Part shown: positions 6,452-32,000 of the stretch, one piece after another | Layout of the letters: every line of letters begins with the position of its first letter | How positions within the stretch are numbered: position 1 is the first letter of the stretch | DNA from: a virus | Virus record (IMG/VR): IMGVR_UViG_3300045988_175865 | Span: 30,001-62,000 of that record | DNA length: 32,000 nucleotides | Direction: 5' to 3' (one strand) | The notes under the pieces: generated by a model | Told to the model about the DNA's origin: nothing | What the model saw: the letters and a program-made list of their open reading frames with translations, nothing else | Databases searched by the model: none | Made by a program: the position numbers and the translations under genes

Positions 6452-6452
6452 A

Positions 6453-9977: not shown

Positions 9978-9984
9978 ATTATTA

Positions 9985-10440: not shown

Positions 10441-10447
10441 AAAATTT

Positions 10448-11188: not shown

Positions 11189-11190
11189 AT

Positions 11191-14340: not shown

Positions 14341-14388
14341 ATAATACGATTAAAAGTAAACATAACGTATTACGTTAGATCTTTTAAA

Positions 14389-15612: not shown

Positions 15613-15648
15613 TAAAGATACAAAAAATTGATTAGATATAAAAATAAG

Positions 15649-16494: not shown

Positions 16495-16495
16495 A

Positions 16496-16846: not shown

Positions 16847-17600
16847 TGTTAAGTAATCGAAAACAGATATTATCTACAATTTGAGTATTGCTTTGATGGA
16901 AATGTCCGTAATACCAATTAGTAATATCATCTTTATAATCATTATAGACCATATCCATAACAGCTCTCTCCTCTTCTATATCCTTTAATAATTCATTATC
17001 GTATTGAGAGTATTCTTGTACAATACTCCCCTTATCTGTTGGAAAACAGAATGAAGGAGCTGTATGAGAACAGATAATATCTATTTTCGCGTCAACTTTA
17101 GGTCGATATTGAACAATCTCATCTTCCCAATACGTCTTAGGAGCATTTAGTTCTGCTGTTTTATAGTCACAATTGTGGTATTTCATATATCTAACTATAT
17201 TAATAGAATCATTTTGCTTCCTAATAATTCTATCTACAGATGTAGCTCCTCCAATACAAAGAATATTAAGATTACAAGTATTTATTATAGTATAGTCAGG
17301 AACACACTTAACATAATTAGTATTAATAAGTTGATTATTGTAATACTTTGGGTTACTGTGATTTCCTCTAATCCAAATAAATATATCATTAAACTTTTTT
17401 AATACTTTATGTAATTCAGGAATTACATGATCTGTATAATGTTTCAACCGCTCAAATCCTATTCCCACATCTCCGCAGAAAATAAATACTGAATTTTTTA
17501 TTTTATATTGTCGAATGTTATGTATAACTGAATTCCATTCTCCATGTACATCTCCAACTATGTAGAGGTCTTTAATTGTATCAGGAAGATTAATTGTCAT
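16794..17600 (-). CDS. calcineurin-like metallophosphoesterase
   Basis: Motifs GDVHGEW, CGDVGIG, RGNHSNP and YGHFH occur in the canonical order. Confidence 0.8.
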   Translation of the reverse strand: MTINLPDTIKDLYIVGDVHGEWNSVIHNIRQYKIKNSVFIFCGDVGIGFERLKHYTDHVIPELHKVLKKFNDIFIWIRGNHSNPKYYNNQLINTNYVKCVPDYTIINTCNLNILCIGGATSVDRIIRKQNDSINIVRYMKYHNCDYKTAELNAPKTYWEDEIVQYRPKVDAKIDIICSHTAPSFCFPTDKGSIVQEYSQYDNELLKDIEEERAVMDMVYNDYKDDITNWYYGHFHQSNTQIVDNICFRLLNIGETCRYYDPSSSNNIL

Positions 17601-17606
17601 AACTTT

Positions 17607-17975
17607 TTATATTTTAAACCCTCCGATTGGAAGGGAATAAATATTATATATTTTGTTGTTAATCTCTATATAATATCTATAAGAGTTAAAGATATTAATA
17701 CAATAAAAGAAATCATTCTTATACTTAATATCACTAAGATAAAAACCTGATTCCTCAGGATTACTAAGGAGGTTTATATCAAATTTTAGAAGATATGGTG
17801 GCAAGATATTCACATTACTAACTCTAAAGACTATTTTTAGTCCAAAACTAGAGTTGAATTTAGTTTTTGGTACATATGCTAAAACCCCCATTCCAATATT
17901 TAAACAGGCTTTAATATAATTAGGATCGTTTCTGTAGACAATTATGTTATGCTGTTCGAGCTCCAGTATAGACAT
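17607..17975 (-). CDS. hypothetical protein
   Basis: 122-aa ORF, stop TAA. Its ATG lies 1 nt downstream of the ferritin TAA (TAATATG). Confidence 0.45.
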   Translation of the reverse strand: MSILELEQHNIIVYRNDPNYIKACLNIGMGVLAYVPKTKFNSSFGLKIVFRVSNVNILPPYLLKFDINLLSNPEESGFYLSDIKYKNDFFYCINIFNSYRYYIEINNKIYNIYSLPIGGFKI

Positions 17976-17976
17976 A

Positions 17977-19628
17977 TTAGTCTATGTCCCCCTTATAGGC
18001 ATTCATAATAGATTTTTCCTTTCTAAGCCAAGAGCCCTCAGTTTCTGCTATATCTAGAACAGTACGGCTAATAGATTCTTCTTCTCAATTTTGTTATCGT
18101 ATAGCTTTTTATCTATACTTCTTATACTTCATTTTGTATAAGCTCAGCATATATTTTCACCTTCAGCATTATCTGTTAAGGGTAAATCACTCGTGGGTTT
18201 ATTTTATTCTAATCTGTTATTAATATTTTATAATTGTATATAGCGTTGTATACCTGTTTTGGAAGTATATTTTTATATTTGTTAGCATATTCCTTTAAAC
18301 AAGTTTCTTTCTCTTTCTTATATGCTCTAAATGCTTCTTCAATTGTAGAAAAAGTTCCTATATGTTTTTTCTTATTCATATAATTAATTTGAGCAATTAT
18401 TTTATTGTTTTTGATTCTGACTCCTATTGGAGTATTACCTCTACATTGAAATCTTCAAGTAATAGCAGTATTAATTTCCTTTGGGATAAAACAACAATAA
18501 TTTGGAGAATAAATTTTATTCCCCTTTACCAAGAAATCTTTATCTATAACAAATGATTCGTTATAACAATTATTATAATATCAATCCGCAAAATTCTGAA
18601 AATTTAATCATTCTTTACAAACAGTAACTCCATTTCCTCCATAGTTATTATATTCAGAAACTTTTGGACAATAACATCTTCCAATCATTTCTTTCCAAAT
18701 TTTATAACATCGAGTTTGTTTACCGTTTTTGTCCCTAGAACTATATTGACCTACTCCAAAATAACCTGTATTGTATACAGACGGATAATAAGGATCTTTA
18801 ACAGAGCCCTTTTTTAGATTACCTAGTTCAGCAGTAATAATAGTACCTGTTTGTAAAAATTTTATTATTACATTATATGAATCAATATATTCTAGAATGA
18901 TAAAATCTCCAGAACTATTTGAAGTCATAATTTTATTTTCATAAATTTGTTTGTTATTTGTCATATATCATAATATTTTAATTAAACATAGTACAAATAT
19001 ACAAATTCTTTTTCAGACTCACAAACAAATTAGGTTCAAAACCTATGCGTTACACTGACTTAATATATTACTATTAAGTTTAGCACGGTATTAGCATCTC
19101 AGCCTTCACCGTTTTTGATTTATTCTATTCTACTTATTTCTAAGCAGACAGGCAGAATTCTACCTGCTCGTTCACTAACATTCCTGTCTCTTTATTATGC
19201 CCGTTCAACCAGTTGAAAGTAGCCCAATCACCCTCATTAGCTGCCTGATCAACAATTTCATTAATCATTTGAGTAGTTTCAATTTCAAGATCTACGGTAA
19301 TCTTAAAAGGATCTACCATATCTTCTACTTTCTTATCAAACTGCTCAATAGTAGGATAAATATACTCTGCATCGTTTTCATTTAAATATTTACGAATCCA
19401 GGAATGATGTAAGTATTCTTCATCTGCTCTTTGTTTGTAATACTCTTCAAGAATAACAAATCCTCTAACACCAAAGTAATTTGCAAAATTCATATACGCA
19501 TTATGATTTTGCAATTCATGCTTAAGCTGACGAAGAAGTAGTTTTTGAATTTCAGCACTTAAAGTGCATTCACGCCTACTAACATCCTTTTTTTCTACAG
19601 GATCATTTGCCTCATTTTTAATTATCAT
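17977..19628 (-). CDS. ferritin-like di-iron protein, split by a group I intron (exon 1 19162..19628, exon 2 17977..18085)
   Basis: Ferroxidase-type residues appear in ELQNHNAYMNFANYF...ADEEYLHH...EIETTQMINEI. Joining the exons gives ...MLVNEQV|EEESISRTVLDIAE..., matching the bacterial ferritin segment VSEQHEEEKLF. Stop TAA at 17977. Confidence 0.7.
18086..19161 (-). mobile_element. group I intron with HNH/AP2-like homing-endonuclease ORF, inserted in the ferritin gene
   Basis: The 5' exon ends ...CAGGT| and the intron ends ...GATAACAAAATTG| (G at 18086). That 3' end is nearly identical to the helicase intron's. Shared core blocks are at 19083-19098, 19043-19054 and 18145-18160, with the ORF inserted between the last two. 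Confidence 0.7.
18209..18964 (-). CDS. intron-encoded homing endonuclease-like protein (degenerate HNH plus AP2-type DNA-binding domain)
   Basis: Track ORF 18608..18964 continues through TGA at 18608, 18581 and 18455 to TAG at 18209. Sequence: YKIWKEMIGRCY...VCKEW-LNFQNFADW-...IDKDFLVKGNKIYSPNYCCFIPKEIN...GVRIKNNKIIAQINYMNKKKHIGTFSTIEEAFRAY. The last stretch is an AP2-like pattern. Confidence 0.65.
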
Positions 19629-19665
19629 AAATTAGGTAATTTAAAGTATAAAACATTTCTGCTAT

Positions 19666-20028
19666 CTAGTAAATATGGATCCTATAACTCTCCTTATGAA
19701 AGTTAAAGTTAAATTGATTTTCTAATAACCAGTAAATATCAGAATATATTGTGAATTCATGATTATTAATTACAAATCTAAGATAAAAACTATCATAAGT
19801 AGTTAAATACCTAGTAATATCTTGTTCATTAAAATAGATAATATTTATACCCTCAAGTTCAATACCTAGATTCTCAAACTCTACTGTAAGTTCTTCACTT
19901 CCACAAACATCAATGATAGATAAGTACCTGTCAGTTTTTTTGTCAAATCCATCAATATACCCTCTCATGTGATTAACACAAGGATACCAATGATTACCAA
20001 CTCTTTTCAAAGTTAATTTCTTTTCCAT
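19666..20028 (-). CDS. hypothetical protein
   Basis: 120-aa ORF, stop TAG. No motif recognised. Confidence 0.5.
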   Translation of the reverse strand: MEKKLTLKRVGNHWYPCVNHMRGYIDGFDKKTDRYLSIIDVCGSEELTVEFENLGIELEGINIIYFNEQDITRYLTTYDSFYLRFVINNHEFTIYSDIYWLLENQFNFNFHKESYRIHIY

Positions 20029-20030
20029 AG

Positions 20031-20474
20031 TTAATTCTGTTTAATATCTTCCTTTGGATTGATTACTGTTGCAGCAATATTAGCATAACAATCTGCAAGT
20101 TCATTAAATTTATTATTATTGTGGCCTTTTAATCAAAAGAACTTTACTTTATGAAAGTGTAATAGATTAACTATTTTAACTCATAGATCCATATTCTTCT
20201 TTGAATTATCTTGCTCTGCAATTCATCTATATACATGACCATTGTTAATACTACTAACAATATAACTTGAATCAGAATATATTTCTAAATTCCTAGGTTC
20301 CTTAAAATATTCTAAGGAGTATAGAACTCCCATTAATTCTGCTCTATTGTTAGTAGTATGTATATAACCTTGATATAAAATCTTAATTACTTTGTTGTCC
20401 TCAGTAATTATAGAGGCATAACCCCCTTGGTCTGTTGTTGGTTTGTAACTTCCATCAGTATAGATTCTAATCAT
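20031..20474 (-). CDS. rnhA: ribonuclease HI
   Basis: Sequence: MIRIYTDGS...GGYA...TNNRAELMG...IYSDSSY...RW-...NMDLW-...VKFFW-LKGH...NELADCYA. The three W positions are TGA codons at 20223, 20181 and 20133. Stop TAA at 20031. Confidence 0.8.
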
Positions 20475-20625
20475 CAATAATTTCAGCATCGTCAAACTCA
20501 ATAACTCTTATAGTTCCCTTAAAGGCAGCCTCTCTAGAAACTAGAAAGTTATTAAAATCTTCTATAAATGCATCTTTGTTTTTATCTTCTATACTAATAT
20601 AACCATTAAAAATGATGTCAACCAT
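20467..20625 (-). CDS. small hypothetical protein (52 aa)
   Basis: ATG 20625-20623 overlaps the upstream TAA (TAATG). MVDIIFNGYISIEDK...EIIDD, stop TAG at 20467, overlapping the rnhA start. Too short for the ORF track. Confidence 0.3.
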   Translation of the reverse strand: MVDIIFNGYISIEDKNKDAFIEDFNNFLVSREAAFKGTIRVIEFDDAEIIDD

Positions 20626-21005
20626 TACTCAACAAAATAATTGGAATTAAAAAGCTTAGGATTATGTCTTTTTAAAAGTTTCTTCTCCTTTTCTATCATA
20701 ATACTCATGACTTCATCAGCATAGTCATTTCTACGACCTCCAAAGTTTTCAATAACATGAAACGGATTCTCTAAAGCATTACGCTCAGCAATCTTTCGAC
20801 CAATAGCTTTATTAAAGTTATCTACAGGCTGACATACTGCAAGTCCAAACTTAATAGTATGACTATTATCATCATAAACTGCAGCTATAGTATACCTACG
20901 ACATGGTTTAACATCATAAACAACAGTTTTCTCAATAATAGGATTCACAGAAACAGTGCCTTGATATACAGGAGCACTGTAATAATACTTAACTACTCTA
21001 CTCAT
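20625..21005 (-). CDS. hypothetical protein (pattern reminiscent of the N4 gp49 / Sf6 gp66 family)
   Basis: 126 aa with FGLAVCQPVDNFNKAIGRKIAERNA. The family assignment is from memory of the motif only. Confidence 0.45.
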   Translation of the reverse strand: MSRVVKYYYSAPVYQGTVSVNPIIEKTVVYDVKPCRRYTIAAVYDDNSHTIKFGLAVCQPVDNFNKAIGRKIAERNALENPFHVIENFGGRRNDYADEVMSIMIEKEKKLLKRHNPKLFNSNYFVE

Positions 21006-21042
21006 ATCTTTCTTATTTTTTTATGATTTACATTTTAAATTG

Positions 21043-21291
21043 TTACTTCCTAGAAAGCTTACACCTCCATTTTTCTAGATTTTTACCAAATCTAGCATCA
21101 AATATATAATCACAGTAACTATAATCATTAACTATTGTTCTAGGATTAGGAATATTACAATCAAAGTCTTTATCTTGAAGTTTAAAAAAATTACTTTTTA
21201 AGTAATTCTTTATTCTTCTTTTAACAATTCGATGATAAATATTCTTTATACCTTTATCCTTGTAAACTGGAACCTTATAACTCTTTGACAT
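21043..21291 (-). CDS. hypothetical basic protein
   Basis: 82-aa Lys/Arg-rich ORF, stop TAA. Confidence 0.4.
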   Translation of the reverse strand: MSKSYKVPVYKDKGIKNIYHRIVKRRIKNYLKSNFFKLQDKDFDCNIPNPRTIVNDYSYCDYIFDARFGKNLEKWRCKLSRK

Positions 21292-21313
21292 ATTAAGATA
21301 ATATTAAATATAA

Positions 21314-21817
21314 TTAAGTTACTATATTTTTCATAAATGATATTCTAGCAATGTTTCGTAAATCACTAGATAATACTTTAACAACTATATCTTGTCGGCC
21401 ATTTCTTTGATAATAAGTATATAAAGACCTAGACTTATCTATACTCTTATTTGTTACCTTAGAATCAATTAGTTTAATTATGTCAGTTCGTCTACATACA
21501 ATTCAATCTTTCTCTCCTTCAAATGCTATATAATCAGCCTTTCCAAATAGTCATCCAGGATTTCCTCGAACATTTTTTAGTTCTACTCAGTTGATATTAT
21601 AATCTGGAGTATTATCAGCTCTACGATTTTTTTTTGCGCTCTTGATGTCAAATGTAAAAGTTCTATTATTATATGTTCATATAATATCAATATGATCATA
21701 CATATCTTGATACTTAGATGGAATCTGAACAGTTCCTCCAACCTGAGATAGTAACAATTCAGAAAACTCAGATTCTTTTATCTTTCCTAATTTAGAGCAA
21801 TCTATATATTTATTCAT
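21314..21817 (-). CDS. PD-(D/E)xK nuclease-like protein
   Basis: Start MNKYIDCSKLG at 21817. The frame passes through TGA at 21677, 21587, 21551 and 21503 to TAA at 21314. YDHIDII-W-...FTFDIKSAKK has a D...D-x-K layout. Confidence 0.5.
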
Positions 21818-22073
21818 AATTGTGACCCCATTTTTCAGCTTCTTCAAATGTACTAAAAACAAGATATTCTGGAATCATTGTTACTATATCTTCAAAAGCA
21901 TAAAATATATGAGGACCAGAATCTAAATATGAGACTATAATATCCTTAACTGTTCTAGGAGTAGTATCTACAGTATAAGTATCTACAAAAACTCCTGCTT
22001 CAAATTGATGGGTCTTTTGACAAATAAATACTGTCTGCCCAATATCAAATTTGGTTTCTATACTAATTTTCAT
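21810..22073 (-). CDS. hypothetical protein
   Basis: 87-aa ORF, stop TAA. Confidence 0.45.
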   Translation of the reverse strand: MKISIETKFDIGQTVFICQKTHQFEAGVFVDTYTVDTTPRTVKDIIVSYLDSGPHIFYAFEDIVTMIPEYLVFSTFEEAEKWGHNYE

Positions 22074-22074
22074 T

Positions 22075-22683
22075 TTAGTTATCTATTATTTCAATATATC
22101 TCTGTTTAGGAGTAGTAACGTAAGGATTTTGATCTATAATAATAACTTCTATAACAGTATGTTTTCTAGTAAACCATCGTGGTAGAAACCATTTTCGTGG
22201 TTTAATAGGTTCTTTATGAGAACTTAGAGTTATATACTTTTCATTATTATACTCATTACTTAAAGCTATTGTTCCTGGATAGGAAAGGTGTAGACAACTT
22301 CTGTTTCATTTATCTACAATACAAGTATCTAACACAAACCCAGGTTCTCTAAATATTGTATCTCTAATAACAATAGTATCTTTCTTAGAAAAATGTTCTA
22401 ATTGATATTGTAACGCTTTAATTTTATTATCCTTAACTTTGTTCTCATTAGCTACTTTTTTCATTTTAAGCATTAAAGAATCGCTAAAGTATTCTAATTG
22501 CTCAATTGAAAGCTTAAATACACGATTACTTTCTTTTAATCATGAATTTTCCGCAGCATATGCTTTTTCATTATTTATAGAATTATCTAACGCAATATTC
22601 AGATTTCTAATTTTATTGGTCATAAAAATTATAGCCAATACAAGTAAAGTATAACTTAATATTCTTAAAATTATTTTTTTCAT
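22075..22683 (-). CDS. membrane-anchored coiled-coil protein
   Basis: ATG 22683-22681 overlaps the upstream TAA. The N-terminus MKKIILRILSYTLLVLAIIFM looks like a signal anchor, followed by a heptad-like region. There are two in-frame TGAs (for example 22540-22542). Stop TAA at 22075. Missed by the standard-code track. Confidence 0.55.
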
Positions 22684-23036
22684 TATATTAATTCTCTGTT
22701 AAAAGTTGAAACTACAAAACTTCGGAATAGAATTAAATCTTCTAGAGCATTATCTAACGATGCTACTTGTTTTTTAACTCTTAAATATTTTTCAGTAATA
22801 ATTTGTATAATATTTTTAATATCTCTAATAGAACAAGGATCGTATTCAAACATACATAATCTTCTATTTAAAACACCAATAGGCTCATTTGTTAAAATTA
22901 TAGGAATTCTCTTGTTAGATTGAATTTTTATAACAAAAGGAATAGATCCAAGGTCTACTAATAATTTTAGATATCTTATATCTACATTATTTGGAAATAT
23001 AAATCCTGCCTGTTTAAGATTTCTAGTAATTAACAT
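22683..23036 (-). CDS. hypothetical protein
   Basis: 117-aa ORF, stop TAA. Confidence 0.45.
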   Translation of the reverse strand: MLITRNLKQAGFIFPNNVDIRYLKLLVDLGSIPFVIKIQSNKRIPIILTNEPIGVLNRRLCMFEYDPCSIRDIKNIIQIITEKYLRVKKQVASLDNALEDLILFRSFVVSTFNRELI

Positions 23037-23041
23037 AGTAT

Positions 23042-23073
23042 TAAAAAATAAGGCATTAGAAAACTAATGCCTT
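23042..23073 (-). terminator. rho-independent terminator
   Basis: Perfect 10-bp stem aaggcattag / aaaa / ctaatgcctt (23050-23073). It is followed on the minus strand by AUUUUUU and lies directly after the HNH gene stop. Confidence 0.6.
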
Positions 23074-23079
23074 AATATT

Positions 23080-23649
23080 TTATTGTTTATTAACAGTGTA
23101 TCCATGATGTTCTAAAACTAGTTTACATAAGTTTAAGTACTCTTCTACAGTTAAATCACTTTTAGAATAATTAGCTGCAGGAGTTGTAATACCTAAATTT
23201 GATAAATCATTCGACCCGCCTTTAGAAACTGGTATTATATGATCAAAACAATAATCATCTTTTTCTAAATCAATAGGAGTGCCTGTTAAATAGCACTTTG
23301 TTTTTGTGCCAAATTTATTAATAATATCTAAAGTCTTAATTTTATTTAAACTCTTCATTCCTCTATTTTGAAAATGTTCAATATATCTCCTTAAACGTTT
23401 ACGTCATGTTCTATTAGAGATTCTTCTACATCCATGAGAGATTCTAGCACAAAAAGTACATAGTCTAGATTTAATTCTCCCCTTAAGTGTATTACGTCAT
23501 AATGAAGTAGATTTTCGTTGTTTACTATTAGTTATATCATTACAATAATATCCAACAATACTTTTGCTACATCCAAGTATCTTAGCAATTTCATTATAAC
23601 TTTTATTATCACTTCTTAAAATAAGAATTTGTTCCTTTAACTTACTCAT
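23080..23649 (-). CDS. free-standing HNH endonuclease with N-terminal HTH
   Basis: ATG 23649-23647 lies 14 nt after the tRNA 3' end. HTH is SYNEIAKILGCSKSIVGYY. Two in-frame TGAs at 23497-23499 and 23404-23406. HNH core is CFDHIIPVSKGGSNDLSNLGITTPAANYSK. Stop TAA. Confidence 0.75.
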
Positions 23650-23663
23650 AATCAACTTATTAG

Positions 23664-24101
23664 CACGAGCTCTCCGATTCGAACAGAGACCGTAGGGTTT
23701 GGAGCCCTACAATACGGTTTTGCTTACCACTATAGTTTTCACTACCAGTTTTACTGTTTGTAGTCTGGACTATATCAGCTTGATATACAAGTGTGGCATT
23801 TAGTCTCTACACATTTATAGAGTAAAGTAGGATACATAGAGAAGTGTACGGCTTTAATTTTCGACCTACTAAGCACTCCGCCTATTTTACACGGCATAAA
23901 CAGCCTATGTTCTCTACTGTATTTTACTCTAATTTAGCTCGGTATTATCAGCTATCCATATTTCAGGACCTTAGACTTTCTTAGAAAGCTGATTCGCATG
24001 ATTTTTATCATCTTATTTCGCTTTTACCGAATTTGCCACAATTTTCACGCCAAGCGTGCTCCAATTCGAAGACCGCTGTGCTACCATTACACTAAGCTCG
24101 C
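23664..24101 (-). tRNA. intron-containing suppressor tRNA, anticodon UCA after splicing (tRNA-Trp-like, G73), with a 25-nt extra arm bearing a CUCCAAA loop
   Basis: Exon 1 (24101..24069): GCGAGCU UA GUGU AAUGGUA GCAC A GCGGU CUU. Exon 2 (23722..23664): CAAA ACCGU AUUGUAGGG CUCCAAA CCCUACGGU CUCUG UUCGAAU CGGAG AGCUCGU G. The acceptor stem is 7 bp (G1-U72 wobble). The T-loop is UUCGAAU. U8, A14, GG and A21 are present. No CCA is encoded. Confidence 0.75.
23723..24068 (-). ncRNA. group I self-splicing intron in the tRNA anticodon loop (after U34)
   Basis: P1 is CUU|CG / UGGAG, with a U-G pair at the splice site. P2 is CACGC-UUG-GCGUG. P3 is UGUGGCA (24040-24034) / UGCCACA (23798-23792). P4 is UCGGUA (24030-24025) / UACCGA (23944-23939). 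P7 is GACUA / UAGUC, inside the consensus strings AGAGACUAAAUG and GAUAUAGUCC. P8 is CUUG-UAUAU-CAAG. The terminal G is at 23723. The ligated CUU+CAA pairs continuously with the guide sequence UUGGAG. Confidence 0.75.
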
Positions 24102-24124
24102 ATTTATTATCTTTAGTTATACAG

Positions 24125-24155
24125 CAAAGATAACAAAAATCTGTGAACAATCAAA
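24125..24155 (-). promoter_or_regulatory. candidate Bacteroidota-type promoter (TTTG-N19-TAnnTTTG) upstream of the tRNA
   Basis: The minus strand reads TTTG (24155-24152), 19 nt, then TATCTTTG (24132-24125). The tRNA 5' end is 23 nt further downstream. Confidence 0.35.
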
Positions 24156-24170
24156 AATTTAATTAACAAA

Positions 24171-25376
24171 TTATAAAGAAAATTTGCGAATTTTGGTTAA
24201 ATAAATCTCTTTACGATATTGGTTAACTCCACCATAGTCACCATAACTCATCTGCACTTTACGAAGATGGTATAGCTTACCTCCCTCTAATTTTAATTTA
24301 TCTGCTATATCCTTTGGAAAAGTAAAATCAATAACCTTGTCAACTGTTATTTTTTTATAGTTACTATCCTTTGAATTTATAACATATATTAAGAAAGCAC
24401 TTAATATAAGCAGGTACCACTTAATTTCAGAGTAATCTGTAGTGGGTCTTAAAAATCTGAATTCTACAGTTTTATGGGCATCACCTGAAATTAAATGCAT
24501 TATATTCATATTAAAATATCTACCGTGCACTTCCCACTTACGCTCCTCTGTTGAATCATATGAATTAGGTAAATAAAAACTTTGGTCATCATTATACTTA
24601 TTACCAGTGAACCTTTTGTAGAATGTAGGGAGAGATGCAATACTCGGAAAAGGTTTATTGTAAGCTTTACCATTACTTTTATAGCGTTCTGTATAGTAAC
24701 TATATCTTGGTATGTACATACTAATAGACCATTGAAAATGGCACCAGAACTTACACAGACGATTAATATAACTATTATTAATTGGAAAGTTACCAAAATG
24801 AATATGCAAAGAGCAGTTTTTATCGTAAAACGTGTATCTTTCAAGCAGTTTCAAATGCTGTTTAATAATAGGTAAATCTATATGTGTTAATGGAAAAGTT
24901 ACATATTCATGCCCATTAATTGAACCATCATACAGTGGTACTAGATTTGTATCAATACAACTTAACCAAGGTATGTTTCCTGCGGATGTTTCATATTCAA
25001 GGCCAAAGGTAAAGTCTTCAATATATGTAAATTCTTTATCAGGTATTAATTTAATATACTTAGGTTTTAAAGATAGTTTTGAAAAATTGTAACATCTATC
25101 TATTGGATAATTAAACACATATTTAGAATCTGTAATGATATTATTAGATAGTTTTAAATCTATCGTATAGCAACAAATATTATTTACCCAATATAATGGT
25201 ATTTTGCAGTTCTCGCGTCTTTCCAAATAGGTAATTTTCCCTTCTATTACTAGAGGAATATTTAGTGGGTCTATTTCAAAATAACCATATTCTATATATG
25301 CGTAATCAATATAGATCACACCTCTTAGTAAGGTATCTCCAGTTTCCCACCTTTTTTTAGTATTATTGTACAGCAT
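24171..25376 (-). CDS. glutamine-synthetase-fold amidoligase (Amidoligase_2-like)
   Basis: FTFGLEYETS...LVPLYDGSINGHEYVTFPL...NCSLHIHFG follows the E-x-E / DGS / E-x-V / H-x-H order typical of this family. No in-frame TGA. Stop TAA. Confidence 0.65.
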   Translation of the reverse strand: MLYNNTKKRWETGDTLLRGVIYIDYAYIEYGYFEIDPLNIPLVIEGKITYLERRENCKIPLYWVNNICCYTIDLKLSNNIITDSKYVFNYPIDRCYNFSKLSLKPKYIKLIPDKEFTYIEDFTFGLEYETSAGNIPWLSCIDTNLVPLYDGSINGHEYVTFPLTHIDLPIIKQHLKLLERYTFYDKNCSLHIHFGNFPINNSYINRLCKFWCHFQWSISMYIPRYSYYTERYKSNGKAYNKPFPSIASLPTFYKRFTGNKYNDDQSFYLPNSYDSTEERKWEVHGRYFNMNIMHLISGDAHKTVEFRFLRPTTDYSEIKWYLLILSAFLIYVINSKDSNYKKITVDKVIDFTFPKDIADKLKLEGGKLYHLRKVQMSYGDYGGVNQYRKEIYLTKIRKFSL

Positions 25377-26685
25377 CTAAATTAACAAGTCTATTAGTTA
25401 TAAACTGTAAAATCTGTGTTTCTAGTACTTCAAAATCGAATGTTGTATTTTCTGCATTATTCTTGAAAATTTCAAAAGCGCTAGGAGCATAGGTATATGT
25501 TGTAGAACTTACTCCATCTTTTACATTAACTTTATCAGGAGCATTAAATAGAGTAACATATGATCCTTCCATGTACTTCATATAATTGAAGTCTTTGTCA
25601 ACAGTAGTTAAGACACCATTAATAATTCGAGGATTATATGCAAAGTAATCAATAACTTCGGGACAATAAACAGAAAGAACATCATTTGTAAAAAGGTCAT
25701 CTATATTTTCAAGGAAATCATAACTTTCTTTATTGGGTAACAATCGCCCATAGAAGAAGTAGAAAGTATGTCTATATGCGTTAGAGCTGGCATATGCTTC
25801 GGGTACTAAATGCCCAGAAGGATAAGCTAGATACATACCGTGTGCTGGAATTTCATTTAACATATACGTACCTGTAGTTTGACTGTAATATAAGTTATTA
25901 GAGGTATATGCTGGGGAATTATCCTTATAAGAAGCACCATATACTGGTATGCAAAGGGTTCTCCTTAATTTTTCACGATTAATATTTCTAATACAGTAAA
26001 CCTTGTTATCCTTAATTCGGCATAACTTATTTACAGGAAATTCATAGATTGTTTTTTTACAGTTGATGGAATATAGAGAAGCATACATCGACGAAAAATA
26101 AAGTTTACCCTCGTTAATCATATAAACTAAAGGTCGCTCAGATTTTGTTTTGTTTTCATTATAACAAGAGCTCCCTTTGAACATGAGTACTTCTGGAGTC
26201 AAAGATCTATAATCTACCATTATAAGAACAGCACAACCTGTATATTCTTCTAGAACATCATATCCATGTTCATAAATAATTTCTGCCAAAATTTGAGAAT
26301 CAGACATACCAAGAGTATTAAGTTCTGGAAGATATTTATTAGATAATTCTCCAATATTAAGAATAGTACCATTATGCATTAGTACAAACTCAATTTTGTT
26401 ACCACGTCTAATAACAACTGGCTGAGCCTGATCTAAATTCACAGGATATCCAGGAGAGGCCTTTCGACAATGTAATAAAGCAATAGAAGCTGACTTTGGA
26501 TAATTTATACTAGTAGTAAAGTTCCTAAATAATTTTCTGTCACTGACTCCATATTCTACCTTACCATCAATAAAAATACCACAACTATCTCCCCCTCTTT
26601 CATCGTTTAGGGTTCCAAGTATATTAAAGTGGTTTATGTTAAATTCAGTCTTTTCAGTAGAAATTATTCCAGCTAGTCCGCACAT
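25363..26685 (-). CDS. class II (Ntn) glutamine amidotransferase-like protein
   Basis: N-terminal MCGLAGII (Cys2 nucleophile), then RGGDSCGIF and LLHCRKAS. 440 aa, overlapping both neighbouring genes. Confidence 0.65.
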   Translation of the reverse strand: MCGLAGIISTEKTEFNINHFNILGTLNDERGGDSCGIFIDGKVEYGVSDRKLFRNFTTSINYPKSASIALLHCRKASPGYPVNLDQAQPVVIRRGNKIEFVLMHNGTILNIGELSNKYLPELNTLGMSDSQILAEIIYEHGYDVLEEYTGCAVLIMVDYRSLTPEVLMFKGSSCYNENKTKSERPLVYMINEGKLYFSSMYASLYSINCKKTIYEFPVNKLCRIKDNKVYCIRNINREKLRRTLCIPVYGASYKDNSPAYTSNNLYYSQTTGTYMLNEIPAHGMYLAYPSGHLVPEAYASSNAYRHTFYFFYGRLLPNKESYDFLENIDDLFTNDVLSVYCPEVIDYFAYNPRIINGVLTTVDKDFNYMKYMEGSYVTLFNAPDKVNVKDGVSSTTYTYAPSAFEIFKNNAENTTFDFEVLETQILQFITNRLVNLDAVQ

Positions 26686-27464
26686 ATTCCATAAAGTTTA
26701 ATTAGATGTTCTGCCAGTACTTTATTAGATGTATTAATACACTTTTGAACTAAATCTCCTTCTGGCAAAGGAAATCCTTCATTAAACATATCTACAGCTA
26801 ACATAGTTTGTTTATAAATCATTGGAAGGTATTTGTCATTAAGCATAAAGCTACTTAGACATCTTGCTTCTACTCCCCACTCAGGACAACGGAAACTTCC
26901 TGCTTGACCATATAGAGTTCTTCTAAAAGTATCTCTATCATATAATACAGAAGGAACTCCACAGCATAGATCAAAGAACTTAATAAGCTTAACAGATGTA
27001 TCAAAATTAGGGTTATCATATCCTATGTGAATGTGTGAACCTGCCACTCTTCTATTATCAGGATAACCTTGTGGCTTATCGTTTTCACACTCTGTATAAG
27101 CATCATAATCACTAGAACATCCAATTTCATTTGCTTTAGGATCAAGTAATTGATCTTCAGGCACGGGCATAGATGCACTACAACAAATATCAAGATTGTT
27201 ATCGAATTGTTTAACCCAATTACGAATCCAATCTTTCATATATTTAATAGAATCTACAAATTCATTACTAGAAGTACAAGGTGGGATATTAAATTCTCCT
27301 AAAATACAGTCAATCTCCACACCAAATCCTTTTGGCATGCCTTTAGTATATGGTTTACCTTTTTCTCCTGGAATTATTCCAATTGCAGATACTACTTGGT
27401 TTGTTTTTGTATTAAAAATAAATAACTCGGGGTCTGCTCCAACTGTAATATTTTTAATTTTCAT
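26673..27464 (-). CDS. COOH-NH2 ligase, phage phiEco32-like type 2
   Basis: N-terminal VGADPELFIF, later RRVAGSHIHIGYDNPN. The family assignment is from motif memory. Confidence 0.55.
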   Translation of the reverse strand: MKIKNITVGADPELFIFNTKTNQVVSAIGIIPGEKGKPYTKGMPKGFGVEIDCILGEFNIPPCTSSNEFVDSIKYMKDWIRNWVKQFDNNLDICCSASMPVPEDQLLDPKANEIGCSSDYDAYTECENDKPQGYPDNRRVAGSHIHIGYDNPNFDTSVKLIKFFDLCCGVPSVLYDRDTFRRTLYGQAGSFRCPEWGVEARCLSSFMLNDKYLPMIYKQTMLAVDMFNEGFPLPEGDLVQKCINTSNKVLAEHLIKLYGICAD

Positions 27465-28101
27465 CTGCTATTAATTTATCAATTATTTCATTTATTCTTA
27501 TAACAATTGGTGATTCAGGTCTCATATATTCAGGATGTCCTTGGATAGCCAAACACTTTGGAAGATTTGGTCTGTCATACAAAACAATTTCAGGTTCATA
27601 AGGAGGAGACATAACATTATCTCCCTCATATATACTTGACCGATGACTAGTTGAATAAAACAAACATGTCCAATACTTATATGGTATTATAAATGGATAC
27701 TGCATTTGATGGTGTGTACTGGTAATTTCATACATTTTATTCGTACTTATCTCTGTAATAGAGTGAGTTATTCGAATAGCATGATTTTCCACATTCTGAA
27801 TAAGTATGCCACCATTCATAATACATAAATATTGACTGCCTCGGCAGATCCCCACAGCTAACTGATCAGGTCTGATTTTCTCAAATTCTTTCTTTTCTGC
27901 GAGATCCCTTTGTAAATTAGCACAAGTAGTAGGATGAGGTTTACAGTTATACAAAGAAGGGTGTACATCTTCTCCACCTGTAAAAATAACAATATCTGCA
28001 TCGTTAATATCATCTACTAGCTCACGCTTAGTAATAAAATTAGCATAGTGTACTTGATTACCAACGACATATACTTTTTTTGTTTTTAGCATAGTATTCA
28101 T
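27454..28101 (-). CDS. class I glutamine amidotransferase / peptidase C26 (gamma-glutamyl hydrolase-like)
   Basis: FTGGEDVHPSLY...AVGICRGSQYLCIMNGG...THHQM...IQGHPEY provides the Cys-His catalytic layout. Confidence 0.65.
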   Translation of the reverse strand: MNTMLKTKKVYVVGNQVHYANFITKRELVDDINDADIVIFTGGEDVHPSLYNCKPHPTTCANLQRDLAEKKEFEKIRPDQLAVGICRGSQYLCIMNGGILIQNVENHAIRITHSITEISTNKMYEITSTHHQMQYPFIIPYKYWTCLFYSTSHRSSIYEGDNVMSPPYEPEIVLYDRPNLPKCLAIQGHPEYMRPESPIVIRINEIIDKLIADEN

Positions 28102-28756
28102 TCGCTATAAAATTAATTCCCTTGACAATTTGAGGTAATTGCTTCGAGTTAAATACTCGAAGCAAATGGCACAAACTATTATGTTCAGCCATAATCCTAC
28201 AAAAACTTTCACTATAGTTAAAGTCCCTTCTAATTAAATTAAACTGGCACTTAGGATTAATGTTATAAAATGTTAGGTTATCTAATCCTGGGCAATGACA
28301 TCTTCTTCCATCATGAAACAATGTAATATAAAGTTGCATAATTTGAGTAATATCCAATTCTGGAAAGTTTGCTCTATTTTGCCATGCAGAGTATAATAAT
28401 AACCAAAACGGATTTTCGTATACATATCTAATATATATAGCACTATAGACAAAGAATCTATTGTCAGGAGCACACCTAATTTGTAATTTGTATGAATGTG
28501 TACTCTTTACAAGTGATATTAATGTAAACCCCAGTAGTCTTGAGATTTCCTTAAAGTACTCAATTAATGTTTTCGTATCAAATGTACAGTAGTTAAGCTG
28601 AACTTGTCTACTTCGAGGCCATATAATAGTAGCATAATAATAACCATTAAATTCACCTTGAGAACATCCCCTACTAAAACAAGCCATATTTTCATAAAAG
28701 TAATTACCAGCATAGTAATTACATTTATATTCTTTTCCTCTAAAATCTAGTATCAT
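28058..28756 (-). CDS. hypothetical Cys/aromatic-rich protein within the ligase cassette
   Basis: 232-aa ORF overlapping both neighbours. No motif recognised. Confidence 0.5.
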   Translation of the reverse strand: MILDFRGKEYKCNYYAGNYFYENMACFSRGCSQGEFNGYYYATIIWPRSRQVQLNYCTFDTKTLIEYFKEISRLLGFTLISLVKSTHSYKLQIRCAPDNRFFVYSAIYIRYVYENPFWLLLYSAWQNRANFPELDITQIMQLYITLFHDGRRCHCPGLDNLTFYNINPKCQFNLIRRDFNYSESFCRIMAEHNSLCHLLRVFNSKQLPQIVKGINFIANEYYAKNKKSICRW

Positions 28757-29483
28757 AGTACTTTTTTAAATGATTCCCATAATAAGTTATCCCAAAAGAA
28801 GCCAGAGAAGGAGCTGTATTACTTTCAACAATGATATAACTATTATCACTACACAATATATCAAAGCAGGCAATTGTGAGGTCCATTTGTTTTAATGCCT
28901 TAATACAATCACTAATTATATTTTCCCAACATACAGGTAATTTGTGTTCCTCTGTTACTAAAACAAATATTGAATTATCAGCATGTTTATGCCATTGTAC
29001 TTCAGCGTCTTGTTTCAGCACTTTTTTACAAGCATAAAAACAACCATGATGAACATCAATATGTACTCTATATTCATTTGGGAAGAAGTAATACTTTTCA
29101 AACACGAAATCCCTTATATTAACATTATTACATAGATCGTCTAAAGATTTGGGATTATCAATATAATAAATATTCTTCCCTTTCGATGAATGTTTATGTT
29201 TTGCTATAAGAATTTTGTGCTGCATAAAAAACTTATAAATGCTTGCTTTGTTAGAAGAACTAATCCATTCACTATGAGATACACCCGCTTTGTCAAAGGC
29301 ACGCTTCATTAATATTTTATTCCCAGAAGTTTTAACTCCCTCTATAGTATTAATTTCCAAATATTTATATTTAGAAATTAAAGGAGTTGTGCTCCCTAAA
29401 CGTAGTAGTACTCTTTGATTAAAAGGTATACTACGTAAAGGAGCACAACTTGTATTTGGACTGAAAACTCGAAGTTTTAACAT
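28740..29483 (-). CDS. ATP-grasp ligase (RimK-related)
   Basis: GNKILMKRAFDKAGV...ILIAKHKHSSKGKNIY...EYRVHID...IACFDIL...IVESNTAPSL follows the ATP-grasp order of K-loop, E/R-V-H and E-x-N. Confidence 0.6.
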   Translation of the reverse strand: MLKLRVFSPNTSCAPLRSIPFNQRVLLRLGSTTPLISKYKYLEINTIEGVKTSGNKILMKRAFDKAGVSHSEWISSSNKASIYKFFMQHKILIAKHKHSSKGKNIYYIDNPKSLDDLCNNVNIRDFVFEKYYFFPNEYRVHIDVHHGCFYACKKVLKQDAEVQWHKHADNSIFVLVTEEHKLPVCWENIISDCIKALKQMDLTIACFDILCSDNSYIIVESNTAPSLASFGITYYGNHLKKYYDTRF

Positions 29484-29484
29484 A

Positions 29485-30027
29485 CTATAGTTCTAATGCC
29501 TTATTATAGCAGTACACAGCCAGTTCCTTCTGGGTTAACTTATTATAATCAGCAAATTCAGCCCCATGGTCCTGTAAAAGCTTTGCAATATACTGTAGTT
29601 CGTGTTTTTTTAGTTTGCTAAATTGAGTGGCCGAGAATTCTGCGACCTTCTTATCAAGAGCAATTAATTTGAGGAATACTTTTCCAAATGGTTTATTATT
29701 AAATTTATTAATATATACCTTTTGGTCAATATTATCCTCTACTGGGATAGCTTTAGGTTCAGGGTTAGGAACAACCTCGTCATATGGGATAATCATAAAT
29801 TCAGGTACCCATATGCCTATAGATAGAAAATATGGAATATCTGGGTCATTCTTATCTACATCCTCAATAACAGCAACATTACCAAAATAGGGAAAATCAG
29901 AAAATAAGACATATTTCATGTCTTTGTTACAATAAACACCTTCTAAGTCAGGTGCTTCCTTGAGTAGATTATCCTTAAGTAAACAATCAAGATTTTTAAT
30001 GATAACTTTGTCTCCTTGTTCAAACAT
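29485..30027 (-). CDS. hypothetical protein within the ligase cassette
   Basis: 180-aa ORF, stop TAG, 1 nt upstream of the ATP-grasp ATG. Confidence 0.5.
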   Translation of the reverse strand: MFEQGDKVIIKNLDCLLKDNLLKEAPDLEGVYCNKDMKYVLFSDFPYFGNVAVIEDVDKNDPDIPYFLSIGIWVPEFMIIPYDEVVPNPEPKAIPVEDNIDQKVYINKFNNKPFGKVFLKLIALDKKVAEFSATQFSKLKKHELQYIAKLLQDHGAEFADYNKLTQKELAVYCYNKALEL

Positions 30028-30041
30028 AACTATTTTTATTT

Positions 30042-31118
30042 TTATTTGAAAAATGATAAATATTCTAATGGACTAACAATTCTATATTTAGTCTTTCTAA
30101 ACTCTAAAAGGTCAAAAGAATCTGAATAACTCATCATTGACCTTAAGTAGTCAACGAAATTTTCACACCAATCTTGTAACTTATACAAAACTGGAACTGT
30201 GGTTTCAATACCCTCAGCAGTTTTGAGTTTTTGGTTTCCTATTTCTATCTGTGCTTTTTTAGTAGACATACCATAGTATTTACGTCTGAGTCCTAGATTT
30301 GGATCTGTAACAGGTAGTAACTCTCCACAGGCTTCTTGAGATTGTGCAAAGAGTTTTCCAACCATTACATAATCAGCTCCAAGAGCTAGTGCTTTAATAA
30401 TCTTATCATAATTATCAAATCCTCCGTCCGCAATAATAAATGGAACACTTTTGTATGGATGAGTTATTGAGTTACAACCCAAGTAAAAACCAGAGTCACC
30501 CGCTATATTAACTACTTTTGTTTCTTCAATACATTTTTCTATAGCCCGCTTTTTATCAACAACTTCCTTAATTAAGGAAGCCATTGCATAGTGTATTCCA
30601 CCATTAGCAGAAGTAGTACATACAGAACCTCCCCCTACACCTATCCGTACAAAATCAATTCCTGCTAGTGAATAATCAGCATAAGTATCAGGGTTAGCAA
30701 TATTGCCCGCCATTAATGACAATCGACCTACAAATATAGACTTTGCTTGTGAGCATAAATCAATTAACTTTAACATGTGGCCATTAGCAATATCAACACA
30801 CACATAACGAATATCATTGGTGGTATCATATATATTTTCAAAATCTGTAATAAATCTTTCAAACTCAGATAAGCCAAGTGCAACAAACGTACTTGTAGAC
30901 AACTCCCATCGTTTATCATAATCTACTCCTCTTGGAATAATTGTATTGATCTTATTTCTAAGAAAAACTTCATAATTATTCTCATTAATAACAGAATTCA
31001 TAGGAGCAGTAAATAACGGCAGCATACCATCAAAGTTATATGGATTACAGTCTGCACGATGTTCTATTCTACTGGTTCTAGCTGGTACTAAACAAATATC
31101 ATTTAACCCATATGTCAT
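30042..31118 (-). CDS. IMP dehydrogenase / GMP reductase family protein (GuaC-like, no CBS insert)
   Basis: DICLVPARTS...PLFTAPMNSV...CVDIANGH...GVGGGSVCTTS (catalytic Cys loop)...IADGGF...ALALGADYVMVG. Confidence 0.7.
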   Translation of the reverse strand: MTYGLNDICLVPARTSRIEHRADCNPYNFDGMLPLFTAPMNSVINENNYEVFLRNKINTIIPRGVDYDKRWELSTSTFVALGLSEFERFITDFENIYDTTNDIRYVCVDIANGHMLKLIDLCSQAKSIFVGRLSLMAGNIANPDTYADYSLAGIDFVRIGVGGGSVCTTSANGGIHYAMASLIKEVVDKKRAIEKCIEETKVVNIAGDSGFYLGCNSITHPYKSVPFIIADGGFDNYDKIIKALALGADYVMVGKLFAQSQEACGELLPVTDPNLGLRRKYYGMSTKKAQIEIGNQKLKTAEGIETTVPVLYKLQDWCENFVDYLRSMMSYSDSFDLLEFRKTKYRIVSPLEYLSFFK

Positions 31119-31120
31119 TT

Positions 31121-31261
31121 TTAATCTCTCTTAATTAGTTTATTTTTCTGTTCCTCAGTATCCCTAAATTTTTTTATTTTTCTTTTCTTATTTAGACGAG
31201 CAATCTCTTCCTCGTACCTATTATATTTATCCAATTGATTACCTCGAATAAATTTACCCAT
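31121..31261 (-). CDS. small basic ORF (46 aa), doubtful
   Basis: MGKFIRGNQLDKYNRYEEEIARLNKKRKIKKFRDTEEQKNKLIKRD, with its TAA 2 nt before the GuaC-like ATG. Supported only by position and an open frame. Confidence 0.25.
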   Translation of the reverse strand: MGKFIRGNQLDKYNRYEEEIARLNKKRKIKKFRDTEEQKNKLIKRD

Positions 31262-31291
31262 GATAAAAAACAGAATTTCAATTTTGATTTA

Positions 31292-32000
31292 CTATTGAAT
31301 CTCTAAAGTACCTGGTTCCAGTCCAAGTTCTTTCTCGACTTCTGCGATTGTTTTCTTTACAACCTTATTCTTTACTTTTGGCCAAGCAACATCCATTTTT
31401 GTGTAATCACTAAGTTTAAAACAGTGTGGTGTTGGAACAAAAATCTTCTTAACTTGGTAGAAACTCCCATTTTTAGGGGAATTAAAGCATCCACTTAAAT
31501 AACCCTTAATTTCTCCTTTATTGTTAACATAAACAATAGCTTTAGAAGAAATAATAAATACAAAATACTCTTGATCTTTAACTATTAACTGTACTATTCG
31601 CCCAGGTAAAAACTCAGACTTAAAATCATTATTAAGATTAGAATCTACCTTATTATCCTCAACCTTATTTTTTTCTTTACCTAGAATCTTTTCAAACTGG
31701 TCTATAATAGATATGTCATTTGATTTTAATTCAGGTGATTCAAGTAATTTTAATAGATTCTTTTCTGATTTTAAAATAATATCACTATATAGAGCAAGTT
31801 TATTCTCTTCTATATCATTAATACCTAACTCTTTAAGGATAGTGTTGTCATCATCTGAACAGAAGATATCACTATCTCCAGTAAGGTAATGAATATTCTG
31901 ATTATATGTAACAACATAATAAGATCTTTTATCTGTATCAATTAAGATCTTATAAGGGTGTCCTGAAAGTAATAAAGATATACTTACCTTAGGATAGTTT
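31292..32000 (-). CDS. hypothetical protein (5' end beyond right edge of window)
   Basis: Open minus-strand frame from the window edge to TAG at 31292 (...AEVEKELGLEPGTLEIQ). No in-frame TGA. Not in the track because the start lies outside the window. Confidence 0.5.
   Translation of the reverse strand, partial: NYPKVSISLLLSGHPYKILIDTDKRSYYVVTYNQNIHYLTGDSDIFCSDDDNTILKELGINDIEENKLALYSDIILKSEKNLLKLLESPELKSNDISIIDQFEKILGKEKNKVEDNKVDSNLNNDFKSEFLPGRIVQLIVKDQEYFVFIISSKAIVYVNNKGEIKGYLSGCFNSPKNGSFYQVKKIFVPTPHCFKLSDYTKMDVAWPKVKNKVVKKTIAEVEKELGLEPGTLEIQ

Follow-up and report, generated by a model that had tools for sequence, protein, structure and literature searches.

A TGA-free gene block precedes an intron-split tRNA(UCA) and recoded replication genes in a phage that reads TGA as tryptophan

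We analysed a window of 32,000 nucleotides (nt) from IMG/VR virus record IMGVR_UViG_3300045988_175865 (positions 30,001 to 62,000 of that record), in which a tRNA gene with anticodon UCA, interrupted by an intron, separates two sets of genes on the same strand. Upstream of this tRNA(UCA), in the direction of transcription, the genes contain no in-frame TGA and write every tryptophan (Trp) as TGG, while downstream of it half of the Trp codons are TGA. Comparison with related genomes indicates that the TGA-free state of the upstream region is held by purifying selection. The best explanation of this arrangement, which we hold with moderate confidence, is the published temporal model in which an early block in the standard code is followed by the suppressor tRNA and then by recoded genes. 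A code polarity around the tRNA had been proposed in a first-pass annotation of the window; the contrast itself was recovered in the window and in four lineages of relatives, but it is leaky in the closest relative (contig L001).

The window has a G+C content of about 30%, and all of its credible genes lie on the minus strand, where the reading frames are open only when TGA is read through. We translated TGA as X and aligned the products to structures in the PDB (RNase H and XPB-type helicases). In the RNase H (20031-20474) an X fell on the conserved Trp of the DLW motif and on the W (or K/F) at the WVKGH position, and in the XPB-like SF2 helicase (14389-15612) on the eqW and erW positions. 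This placement at conserved Trp positions indicates that TGA encodes Trp. After over-extended starts had been trimmed, the ten units from 32000 down to 24171 (a partial gene, an open reading frame (ORF) of 46 amino acids (aa) and eight cassette genes) held 0 in-frame TGA and 22 TGG codons, 21 in the cassette and one in the partial gene, which confirms the earlier count of about 21 Trp codons, all TGG. The 35 genes downstream of the tRNA, including that of an HNH endonuclease, held 43 TGA and 43 TGG, so that the two TGAs reported for the HNH gene and the 41 beyond it were reproduced, as was the use of TGA at five of the eight Trp positions of the SF2 helicase (5 TGA, 3 TGG). In the order of transcription, the upstream units and the downstream block are:

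31292..32000, minus strand: 3' part of a gene cut by the window end; no Pfam hit; 0 TGA, 1 TGG
31121..31261, minus strand: small ORF of 46 aa without a Trp codon; 87-100% conserved in L001-L006
30042..31118, minus strand: IMPDH/GMP-reductase-like dehydrogenase (Pfam PF00478, E = 6e-35; phrog_9582); 0 TGA, 2 TGG
29485..30027, minus strand: cassette gene with no Pfam or PHROG match, kept in all relatives; 0 TGA, 1 TGG
28740..29483, minus strand: RimK-like ATP-grasp ligase (phrog_2599, E = 6e-21; weak Pfam RimK match); 0 TGA, 3 TGG
28058..28756, minus strand: cassette gene of unknown function (Pfam, PHROG and relatives compared); 0 TGA, 4 TGG
27454..28101, minus strand: Peptidase_C26 / class-I glutamine amidotransferase (PF07722, E = 1e-12; phrog_7218); 0 TGA, 1 TGG
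26673..27464, minus strand: phiEco32-like COOH-NH2 ligase, type 2 (PF14395; phrog_3815, E = 9e-55); 0 TGA, 3 TGG
25363..26685, minus strand: class-II (Ntn) glutamine amidotransferase (PF13522, E = 2e-12); no Trp codon
24171..25376, minus strand: Amidoligase_2 enzyme (PF12224); 0 TGA, 7 TGG
546..23036, minus strand: replication and nucleotide-metabolism block; 41 TGA, 43 TGG without the HNH gene; mosaic TGA use

The check for heterogeneity in TGG versus TGA usage per gene, as proposed in the first-pass annotation, revealed a significant contrast between the two sides of the tRNA (Fisher exact test, p = 3e-6). A gene-order permutation gave p = 0.03 for the run of Trp codons and p = 0.006 for the run length in bp. 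TGA use was also significantly heterogeneous among the downstream genes themselves: the genes for dUTPase (0 TGA, 5 TGG), AAA_24 ATPase (0 and 2), phosphoesterase (0 and 4) and ferritin (0 and 3) are TGA-free. The earlier description of the pattern as mosaic is borne out by these four genes; the putative 'ssb' that had been named with them has no Trp codon and is therefore uninformative. Because the downstream genes differ so much among themselves, the window by itself is suggestive, not conclusive.

We therefore rely on relatives. A megablast search against the INPHARED phages revealed no close relative, and a protein-mode phage search returned only distant amidoligase matches. IMG/VR contigs of 100-171 kb (several near 165-170 kb) carry the cassette at 63-99% identity, and the 5' exon of the tRNA was found in at least 44 IMG/VR contigs. 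The shared layout starts with a tRNA array and small genes, continues with the cassette or other accessory genes, the tRNA(UCA) and the replication and nucleotide-metabolism genes, and ends with a convergent arm of very large genes; many genes in these relatives are broken by endonuclease-bearing insertions. The contrast was significant in four lineages (Fisher exact tests on TGA/TGG counts): 13/43 upstream and 17/21 downstream in lineage A (p = 0.04), 7/58 and 19/25 in lineage B (p = 2e-4), 1/55 and 13/23 in lineage C (p = 1e-5), and 2/37 and 29/23 in lineage D (p = 1.5e-7). A contiguous standard-code-compatible block beyond chance expectation was thus found, though with some TGA leaking into it in lineages A and B. 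The upstream TGAs of lineages C and D, over 11-20 kb, are confined to homing-endonuclease ORFs. An endonuclease ORF in the upstream region was also seen in L008 (1134-1955), with 5 TGA and 0 TGG.

Lineage D has the tRNA, intron and HNH gene as in the window. Upstream of them it carries an IMPDH-like gene, then a 391-aa and a 648-aa gene that replace the rest of the cassette, and all of these are TGA-free. TGA avoidance is therefore a trait of the region and not of the cassette. The share of TGA among the Trp codons increases along the genomes: it is about 0-20% upstream of the tRNA, about 40-50% downstream of it, and about 65-85% in the arm that we presume to be late. In the convergent arm of L036, for instance, three large genes together have 20 TGA and 11 TGG; one gene has 14 versus 6, and its homologue in L027 has 19 versus 5.

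Codon-level comparison gave the same picture. All 27 Trp columns of the cassette are TGG throughout nine genomes from three lineages (63-99% identity), and newly gained cassette Trp residues, including those found in a single lineage, are all TGG as well. In those nine genomes the downstream genes g14, g16, g26, g27 and g28 switch between TGG and TGA, g28 even between copies that are 99% identical.

The boundary between the two blocks is formed by the tRNA and its flanking signals:

24125..24155, minus strand: promoter-like site TTTG-N19-TAnnTTTG, Bacteroidetes type; ends 23 nt before tRNA position 1
24069..24101, minus strand: tRNA(UCA) 5' exon (acceptor strand, D arm, anticodon stem through U34; ARAGORN)
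23723..24068, minus strand: intron of 346 nt, ORF-less, between U34 and C35, group-I-like; boundaries fixed by intronless homologues
23664..23722, minus strand: tRNA(UCA) 3' exon (C35 A36, anticodon stem, long variable arm, T arm, acceptor strand, G73); CCA not encoded
23692..23710, minus strand: extra arm in the variable-arm position, between anticodon stem and T stem; stem GTAGGG/CCCTAC, loop CUCCAAA (23704..23698)
23080..23649, minus strand: free-standing HNH homing endonuclease with N-terminal HTH (Pfam HNH_4 and HNH; phrog_6050); 2 TGA, 0 TGG
23049..23074, minus strand: intrinsic-terminator-like hairpin of 11 pairs followed by a T run; strongest such site in the 12-32 kb scanned

With default settings ARAGORN missed the tRNA(UCA) in the window, and Rfam at gathering or E-value thresholds detected neither the tRNA nor the intron there. 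When introns were allowed, or when the spliced sequence was used, ARAGORN reported a 93-nt tRNA(UCA) at 24101..23664, which agrees with the position given in the first-pass annotation, as does the HNH start codon (ATG at 23649) 14 nt past the tRNA. After splicing, the 93 nt form a 7/5 cloverleaf whose anticodon is UCA. Intronless IMG/VR homologues read GCGGTCTT|CAAAACCGT across the splice junction, and an intronless homologue scored 61.6 bits as a tRNA in Rfam. A 28-nt stretch covering the D arm and the anticodon arm equals that of 76 bacterial tRNA-Trp(CCA) genes except for C34U; the D arm and the 5' strand of the anticodon stem through U33 are identical to the bacterial genes, and position 34 is U instead of C. 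Among 17 aligned homologues G73 and U72 are invariant, and the 1-72 pair is A-U in 13 and G-U in 4, the window having G-U. This tRNA-Trp-like body, together with G73 and U72, identifies the tRNA(UCA) as a derivative of tRNA-Trp. Given that TGA stands at Trp positions, it is predicted to be charged with Trp. A Ser, Leu or Sec identity, for which the long arm might speak, was ruled out by the tRNA-Trp body, by the geometry (7/5 with a 4-bp D stem) and by TGA at Trp positions. Near the suppressor tRNA, no aminoacyl-tRNA synthetase or release-factor domain was found among window genes of at least 100 aa.

The U34|C35 site is occupied by different introns in the relatives, namely variants of 346 nt (ORF-less), 360 nt and 527-707 nt (with endonuclease-like ORFs), and intronless versions of the tRNA also exist, some of them with an encoded CCA end. 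All intron variants obey the same splice-site rule, with U as the last base ahead of the 5' site and G ahead of the 3' site. The motifs AGACUA and GAUAUAGUC, which judged by eye resemble the RF00028 consensus and the group I core, were noted in the 346-nt variant only. We call the intron group-I-like because the Rfam group I covariance model (RF00028) gave no match over the tRNA intron in the window and five relatives, even at E <= 1-10. The first-pass annotation had the downstream genes gated by self-splicing, a proposal that is unsupported since variant introns of 346-707 nt share the site and intronless tRNA versions exist.

With respect to transcription of the tRNA, a sigma-70 promoter scan performed no better than chance (141 sites found versus 130 in shuffles), and for this reason we used the motif TTTG-N19-TAnnTTTG, which we take to be the Bacteroidetes promoter consensus. 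The site before the tRNA is the only strict match in the 32-kb window, where 0.29 were expected by chance. It sits in the 70-nt spacer between the cassette and the tRNA, and 23 of 45 related tRNA loci, lineages A-D included, have kept it; its type may be a hint to the host. The terminator hairpin lies directly 3' of the tRNA in L001-L006. Given the conserved promoter-like site in the spacer, the tRNA is more likely an autonomous unit with its own promoter and terminator, a view based on these predicted signals, although read-through from the cassette into the tRNA may occur. The tRNA had initially been read as the plain tail of the cassette operon, co-transcribed with it, on the ground that the sole strong terminator follows the tRNA; we abandoned this reading, as the tRNA has its own promoter-like site and is then followed by the strongest terminator-like site. 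A relaxed Bacteroidetes pattern (spacer 18-20) matched at three other places in the window, two of them just upstream of ORFs for endonucleases of the free-standing or intron-borne kind: 13523-13554 (minus strand) before a LAGLIDADG ORF starting at 13496, and 18994-19025 (minus strand) before an ORF starting at 18964. These selfish genes may carry host-type promoters of their own.

The HNH gene lies between the tRNA and the terminator. It is absent from this place in L001-L008, where an endonuclease ORF is found inside the intron, and this comparison marks it as a mobile insertion; what the first-pass annotation called the first recoded gene is thus a mobile insert and not the first of the replication genes. 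The three endonuclease-like ORFs of the window (23080-23649, 12306-13496 and 18209-18964) have TGA at nine of their ten Trp codons. The window also appears as a recombinant: its cassette is 96-100% identical to lineage A (L001), and the tRNA acceptor stem, T arm and 3' exon, the intron and the HNH gene are those of lineage D (L083/L086). Such a structure would be consistent with the neighbouring exon sequence having been co-converted when an intron or endonuclease homed.

The temporal model would accommodate these features as follows. The upstream block (the cassette here, and in relatives also the tRNA array with its small early-type genes) is kept TGA-free by purifying selection. Because it has no in-frame TGA, it would be readable by host ribosomes, which could translate it in the standard code before the suppressor is available. 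Next comes what looks like a self-contained tRNA unit, consisting of a Bacteroidetes-type promoter, the intron-split tRNA-Trp(UCA) and a terminator, inside which the HNH gene has landed in this phage. Beyond it follow the replication genes, with TGA at about half of the Trp codons, and the presumably late large genes on the opposite strand, with TGA at about two thirds. The level of mature charged tRNA would limit translation of the downstream genes. Earlier expression of the upstream block and a limiting supply of the tRNA downstream are what we infer from this arrangement.

Several points weigh against the temporal model. The timing of expression is itself deduced from sequence. In L001, which is 99% identical, the sole Trp codon of the gene just upstream of the cassette (the counterpart of 31292..32000) is TGA, and same-strand genes 2-13 kb further upstream carry one to four TGAs each; a 292-aa upstream gene of L001 with four TGAs has no PHROG match and is LicD-like by eye only. 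Downstream, no lineage examined has a TGA in the genes for ferritin, phosphoesterase, dUTPase and AAA_24, and this mosaic means that position relative to the tRNA is not the sole determinant. TGA use correlates weakly with low G+C at third codon positions (GC3), and a compositional or expression-level component may contribute. Host RNA polymerase could fire the tRNA promoter at once, leaving a short delay between the blocks. Finally, the replication genes are recoded here, whereas those in the crAss-like and Agate examples of Borges et al. are in the standard code.

The main rival, which we consider unlikely, attributes the pattern to efficiency or accuracy and not to timing: the suppressor would compete with the host release factor RF2, so that genes with high output or a need for full-length product would avoid TGA at all times. 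The four invariably TGA-free downstream genes are what it predicts, as is the heterogeneity of the downstream genes among themselves. In the window, GC3 is moreover higher in TGA-free than in TGA-using genes (0.19 versus 0.16, p = 0.018) and correlates weakly with the TGA fraction over all window genes (Spearman rho = -0.39, p = 0.02), but the GC3 difference loses significance within the downstream genes alone (p = 0.23). A contiguous 11-20 kb of unrelated genes, many of them small, is TGA-free in lineages C and D whatever its content, and because of this independence from gene content a shared expression class fits better than demand gene by gene.

It is rather improbable, in our view, that the upstream region consists of code-neutral exchangeable modules, that is, of accessory genes recombining among phages of different codes (standard, TAG- and TGA-recoded), of which only TGA-free versions survive. 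The mosaic structure of the window itself (lineage A cassette joined to the lineage D tRNA acceptor stem, intron, 3' exon and HNH gene), the presence of the cassette in some lineages and of other genes instead in others, and the finding that the code can change between close members of the crAss-like Zeta group, with switches over short distances (Yutin 2021, PMC7886860), are all in line with such exchange. However, the divergence of the cassette between lineages (48-83%) is similar to that of the flanking core genes (44-88%), which suggests vertical co-descent, and searches of INPHARED and IMG/VR revealed no standard-code or TAG-recoded genome with the cassette.

The alternative offered in the first-pass annotation, that the cassette was acquired by recent horizontal transfer, is now largely refuted; on this view the donor would have used the standard code and TGA would not yet have had time to build up. 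The G+C and GC3 of the cassette (0.317 and 0.217) are slightly above the downstream averages (0.290 and 0.176), and homologous amidoligase genes occur in unrelated phages, as this explanation would have it. Yet the codon usage of the cassette is no outlier (permutation of the distance in relative synonymous codon usage, RSCU, p = 0.15), the cassette is TGA-free down to 63% protein identity while neighbouring genes flip between TGG and TGA, its newly arisen Trp codons are all TGG, and the lineage with other upstream genes shows the same pattern, independently of gene content. Chance, by which few Trp codons and uneven gene-level TGA use would yield a long TGA-free run, could be entertained for the window, with only 22 upstream Trp codons, 19 of 35 downstream genes also TGA-free and a permutation p of only 0.03 for the Trp run, but is refuted by the independent repetition in four lineages (p down to 1.5e-7) and by zero switches at 27 Trp columns in nine genomes. 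In the interpretation as a whole, then, the TGA-free upstream state has proved real, selected and in accord with the published model; the transfer is rejected, the splicing gate is unsupported and the role given to the HNH gene has been corrected.

The tRNA itself has an unusual feature. The loop of its extra arm, CUCCAAA, is the anticodon loop of ordinary tRNA-Trp, and it differs from the anticodon loop of the same tRNA (CUUCAAA) at position 34 only. We aligned 17 distinct spliced or intronless homologues, found in L047-L090. The CUCCAAA loop was invariant in 17 of 17 sequences, while four of the five core pairs of the stem had changed on both sides (one pair occurs as GC, CG, UA and AU, for example). 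Overall, 95.9% of the cells were paired, compared with 37-47% when the partners were slid, and covariation backs the acceptor, T and extra arms. In some homologues the hairpin CGGGU-CUCCAAA-ACCCG resembles the anticodon arm GCGGU-CUUCAAA-ACCGU. This resemblance suggests that the extra arm is a duplicated anticodon arm that kept CCA. The arm is absent from the relative L079, and all 76 bacterial tRNA-Trp genes retrieved have a normal short variable loop. We rejected the converse reading, in which the hairpin with the CCA loop is the true anticodon arm and the UCA hairpin was inserted: position 26 would then have to bear an arm of 21-23 nt, the variable loop would shrink to 3 nt, and TGA would be left without a decoder.

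For bacterial tryptophanyl-tRNA synthetase (TrpRS), the anticodon and G73 are the main identity elements. We tentatively propose, as a possibility we would rate below even, a tRNA with two anticodon-type arms, in which the UCA arm would decode UGA (and UGG) and the CCA arm would present the identity element to the host TrpRS, allowing Trp charging without a phage synthetase; this architecture and the intron together could explain why the suppressors of most code-4 phage genomes have gone undetected. Geometry may speak against such use of the CCA arm by TrpRS. In the literature, as far as our incomplete coverage goes, we found no description of an intron-split Sup(UCA) or of a CCA-loop arm. One contig with an intronless two-arm tRNA(UCA), L064 (IMGVR_UViG_3300031998_000017), carries about 17 other tRNA genes and, at 5210-5602, a segment that Rfam scores at 85 bits as OLE RNA (gathering score 50), with most of the match in the 3' half of the model.

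The eight genes of the upstream block are, by their domain content, a phage amidoligase cassette plus an IMPDH/GMP-reductase-like gene; such a cassette was reportedly described by Iyer, Aravind and colleagues in 2009. Pfam and PHROG matches place genes for an Amidoligase_2 enzyme, a COOH-NH2 ligase, a class-II amidotransferase, a Peptidase_C26/amidotransferase and an ATP-grasp ligase next to each other. Distant tblastn matches of the amidoligase (29-32% identity) were to the crAss-like phages cr108_1 and Cellulophaga phi14:2. The COOH-NH2 ligase gene is intact in the window; in L001-L007 it is split by an endonuclease-bearing insertion (endonuclease of 265-282 aa; L001 6786-8704, L003-L005 about 6644-7553), and the Peptidase_C26 gene is likewise split in L003-L005. 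In the region that lies just beyond the window end (L001 1265-2122 and the upstream region of L009, about 3-13 kb beyond window position 32000), the relatives encode an HD-domain protein with weak similarity to tRNA nucleotidyltransferase and an array of three to six tRNA genes. The array tRNAs of the relatives include Gln, Thr, Ser, Phe, Cys, His, Asn, Lys, Leu and Arg; no ordinary tRNA-Trp(CCA) was seen among them.

The downstream block encodes RNase H, ferritin, phosphoesterase, the SF2 helicase, a split DnaB, AAA_24, primase, PDDEXK, a split ribonucleotide reductase (RNR), dUTPase and an SF1 helicase. The DnaB-like helicase gene is divided into 13538-13735 and 11191-12147 by a segment with a 396-aa LAGLIDADG ORF (window 11191-13735), and the RNR gene into 5061-5876 and 3336-4769, with some 290 nt between the parts that hold no long ORF. 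The two interruptions look like further introns; Rfam gave no group I match in the window.

The window probably derives from a crAss-like gut phage of about 100-170 kb, of the Zeta type and with TGA read as Trp. As TerL, MCP, portal and RNAP were not identified, this placement is provisional and draws on size, architecture, intron density, amidoligase homologues and the literature. Likewise, the late or structural identity of the convergent arm is deduced from size, orientation and the literature, because PHROGs gave no useful match for its 1466-aa and 677-aa proteins, the arm having been sampled at its edge. The Zeta group is described as having genomes of 145-192 kb, many introns and TGA as Trp mostly in late genes (Yutin 2021, PMC7886860), and the architecture of its phage Lera (PMC12386605) is matched here. 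Shared features are the size of the related contigs (100-171 kb), a G+C content of about 30%, interruptions by introns or endonucleases (DnaB, RNR, tRNA), a tRNA block heading the replication arm, very large genes on a convergent arm, and TGA at Trp positions, with an enrichment in the presumed late genes. The heavily recoded replication genes set the window phage apart. The two Zeta papers describe no intron-split tRNA and note suppressors as often 'undetectable'.

Blocks of different code are an already known phenomenon, and what is new here is the position of the boundary and the architecture of the tRNA. The code boundary is a well-replicated case for the existing model and comes with a natural control, in which the place of the cassette is taken by different genes that are just as free of TGA; selection would then act on the region rather than on particular genes. 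The case also shows that recoding can extend to replication genes. Of the two results the tRNA is the more useful: it represents a concrete class of suppressors that standard tools miss because an intron of 346-707 nt splits the tRNA. Its invariant CCA-loop arm suggests a way in which a tRNA with a changed anticodon could still be charged by an anticodon-reading host synthetase, and if this idea were true, it would matter for how codes evolve in nature and for how suppressor tRNAs are designed.

Group I introns are known from the anticodon loops of bacterial tRNAs such as cyanobacterial tRNA-Leu(UAA) and Azoarcus tRNA-Ile. The intron described here resembles that of tRNA-Leu(UAA) in its insertion between positions 34 and 35, and bacterial tRNA group I introns generally in the U/G splice-site rule, the core-like motifs AGACUA and GAUAUAGUC (judged by eye) and the endonuclease ORFs of some variants. 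It differs in that the host gene is a phage opal-suppressor tRNA-Trp, that RF00028 does not score it and that several unrelated variants occupy one site. With the tRNA-Trp(UCA) of code-4 Mollicutes and the classic opal-suppressor tRNA-Trp, the phage tRNA shares the tRNA-Trp body, the UCA anticodon, G73 and U72, but it has an inserted arm of about 20 nt with the CUCCAAA loop in the variable-arm position. In published surveys, suppressor tRNAs were found in only 35-40% of recoded phage genomes, and non-canonical structures were suspected.

As to the genomic arrangement, Borges 2021 (10.1101/2021.08.26.457843) reported early genes in the standard code, a standard-coded code-change module upstream of recoded genes, and an intron endonuclease of Agate phages biased towards TGA. 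Like the code-change module of Jade phages, the window has its code-change component in a standard-coded setting directly upstream of recoded genes, and as in Agate phages, homing-endonuclease ORFs within standard-coded genes carry TGA; the endonuclease ORFs of the window have 9 TGA and 1 TGG. The Jade module combines the tRNA with TrpRS and RF1, whereas neither of these two was found beside the tRNA here (genes of at least 100 aa), and the genes downstream are replication genes, not a lysis cassette. A suppressor tRNA at the 5' end of a recoded block was reported by Pfennig 2022 (10.1101/2022.06.29.495998). In that work (Mgcod) the code changes where the coding strand changes, and most cases involve TAG with Sup-CTA; in the window phage the genes on either side of the boundary share one strand, accessory or early genes preceding it and replication genes following it, and a second rise in TGA occurs at the strand switch. 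The order of elements is nevertheless the same as in Pfennig 2022 and Ivanova 2014, with a dual-readable block rich in early genes followed by a suppressor tRNA and by genes that need the alternative code, and Pfennig 2022 likewise inferred that the tRNA is expressed before the recoded genes.

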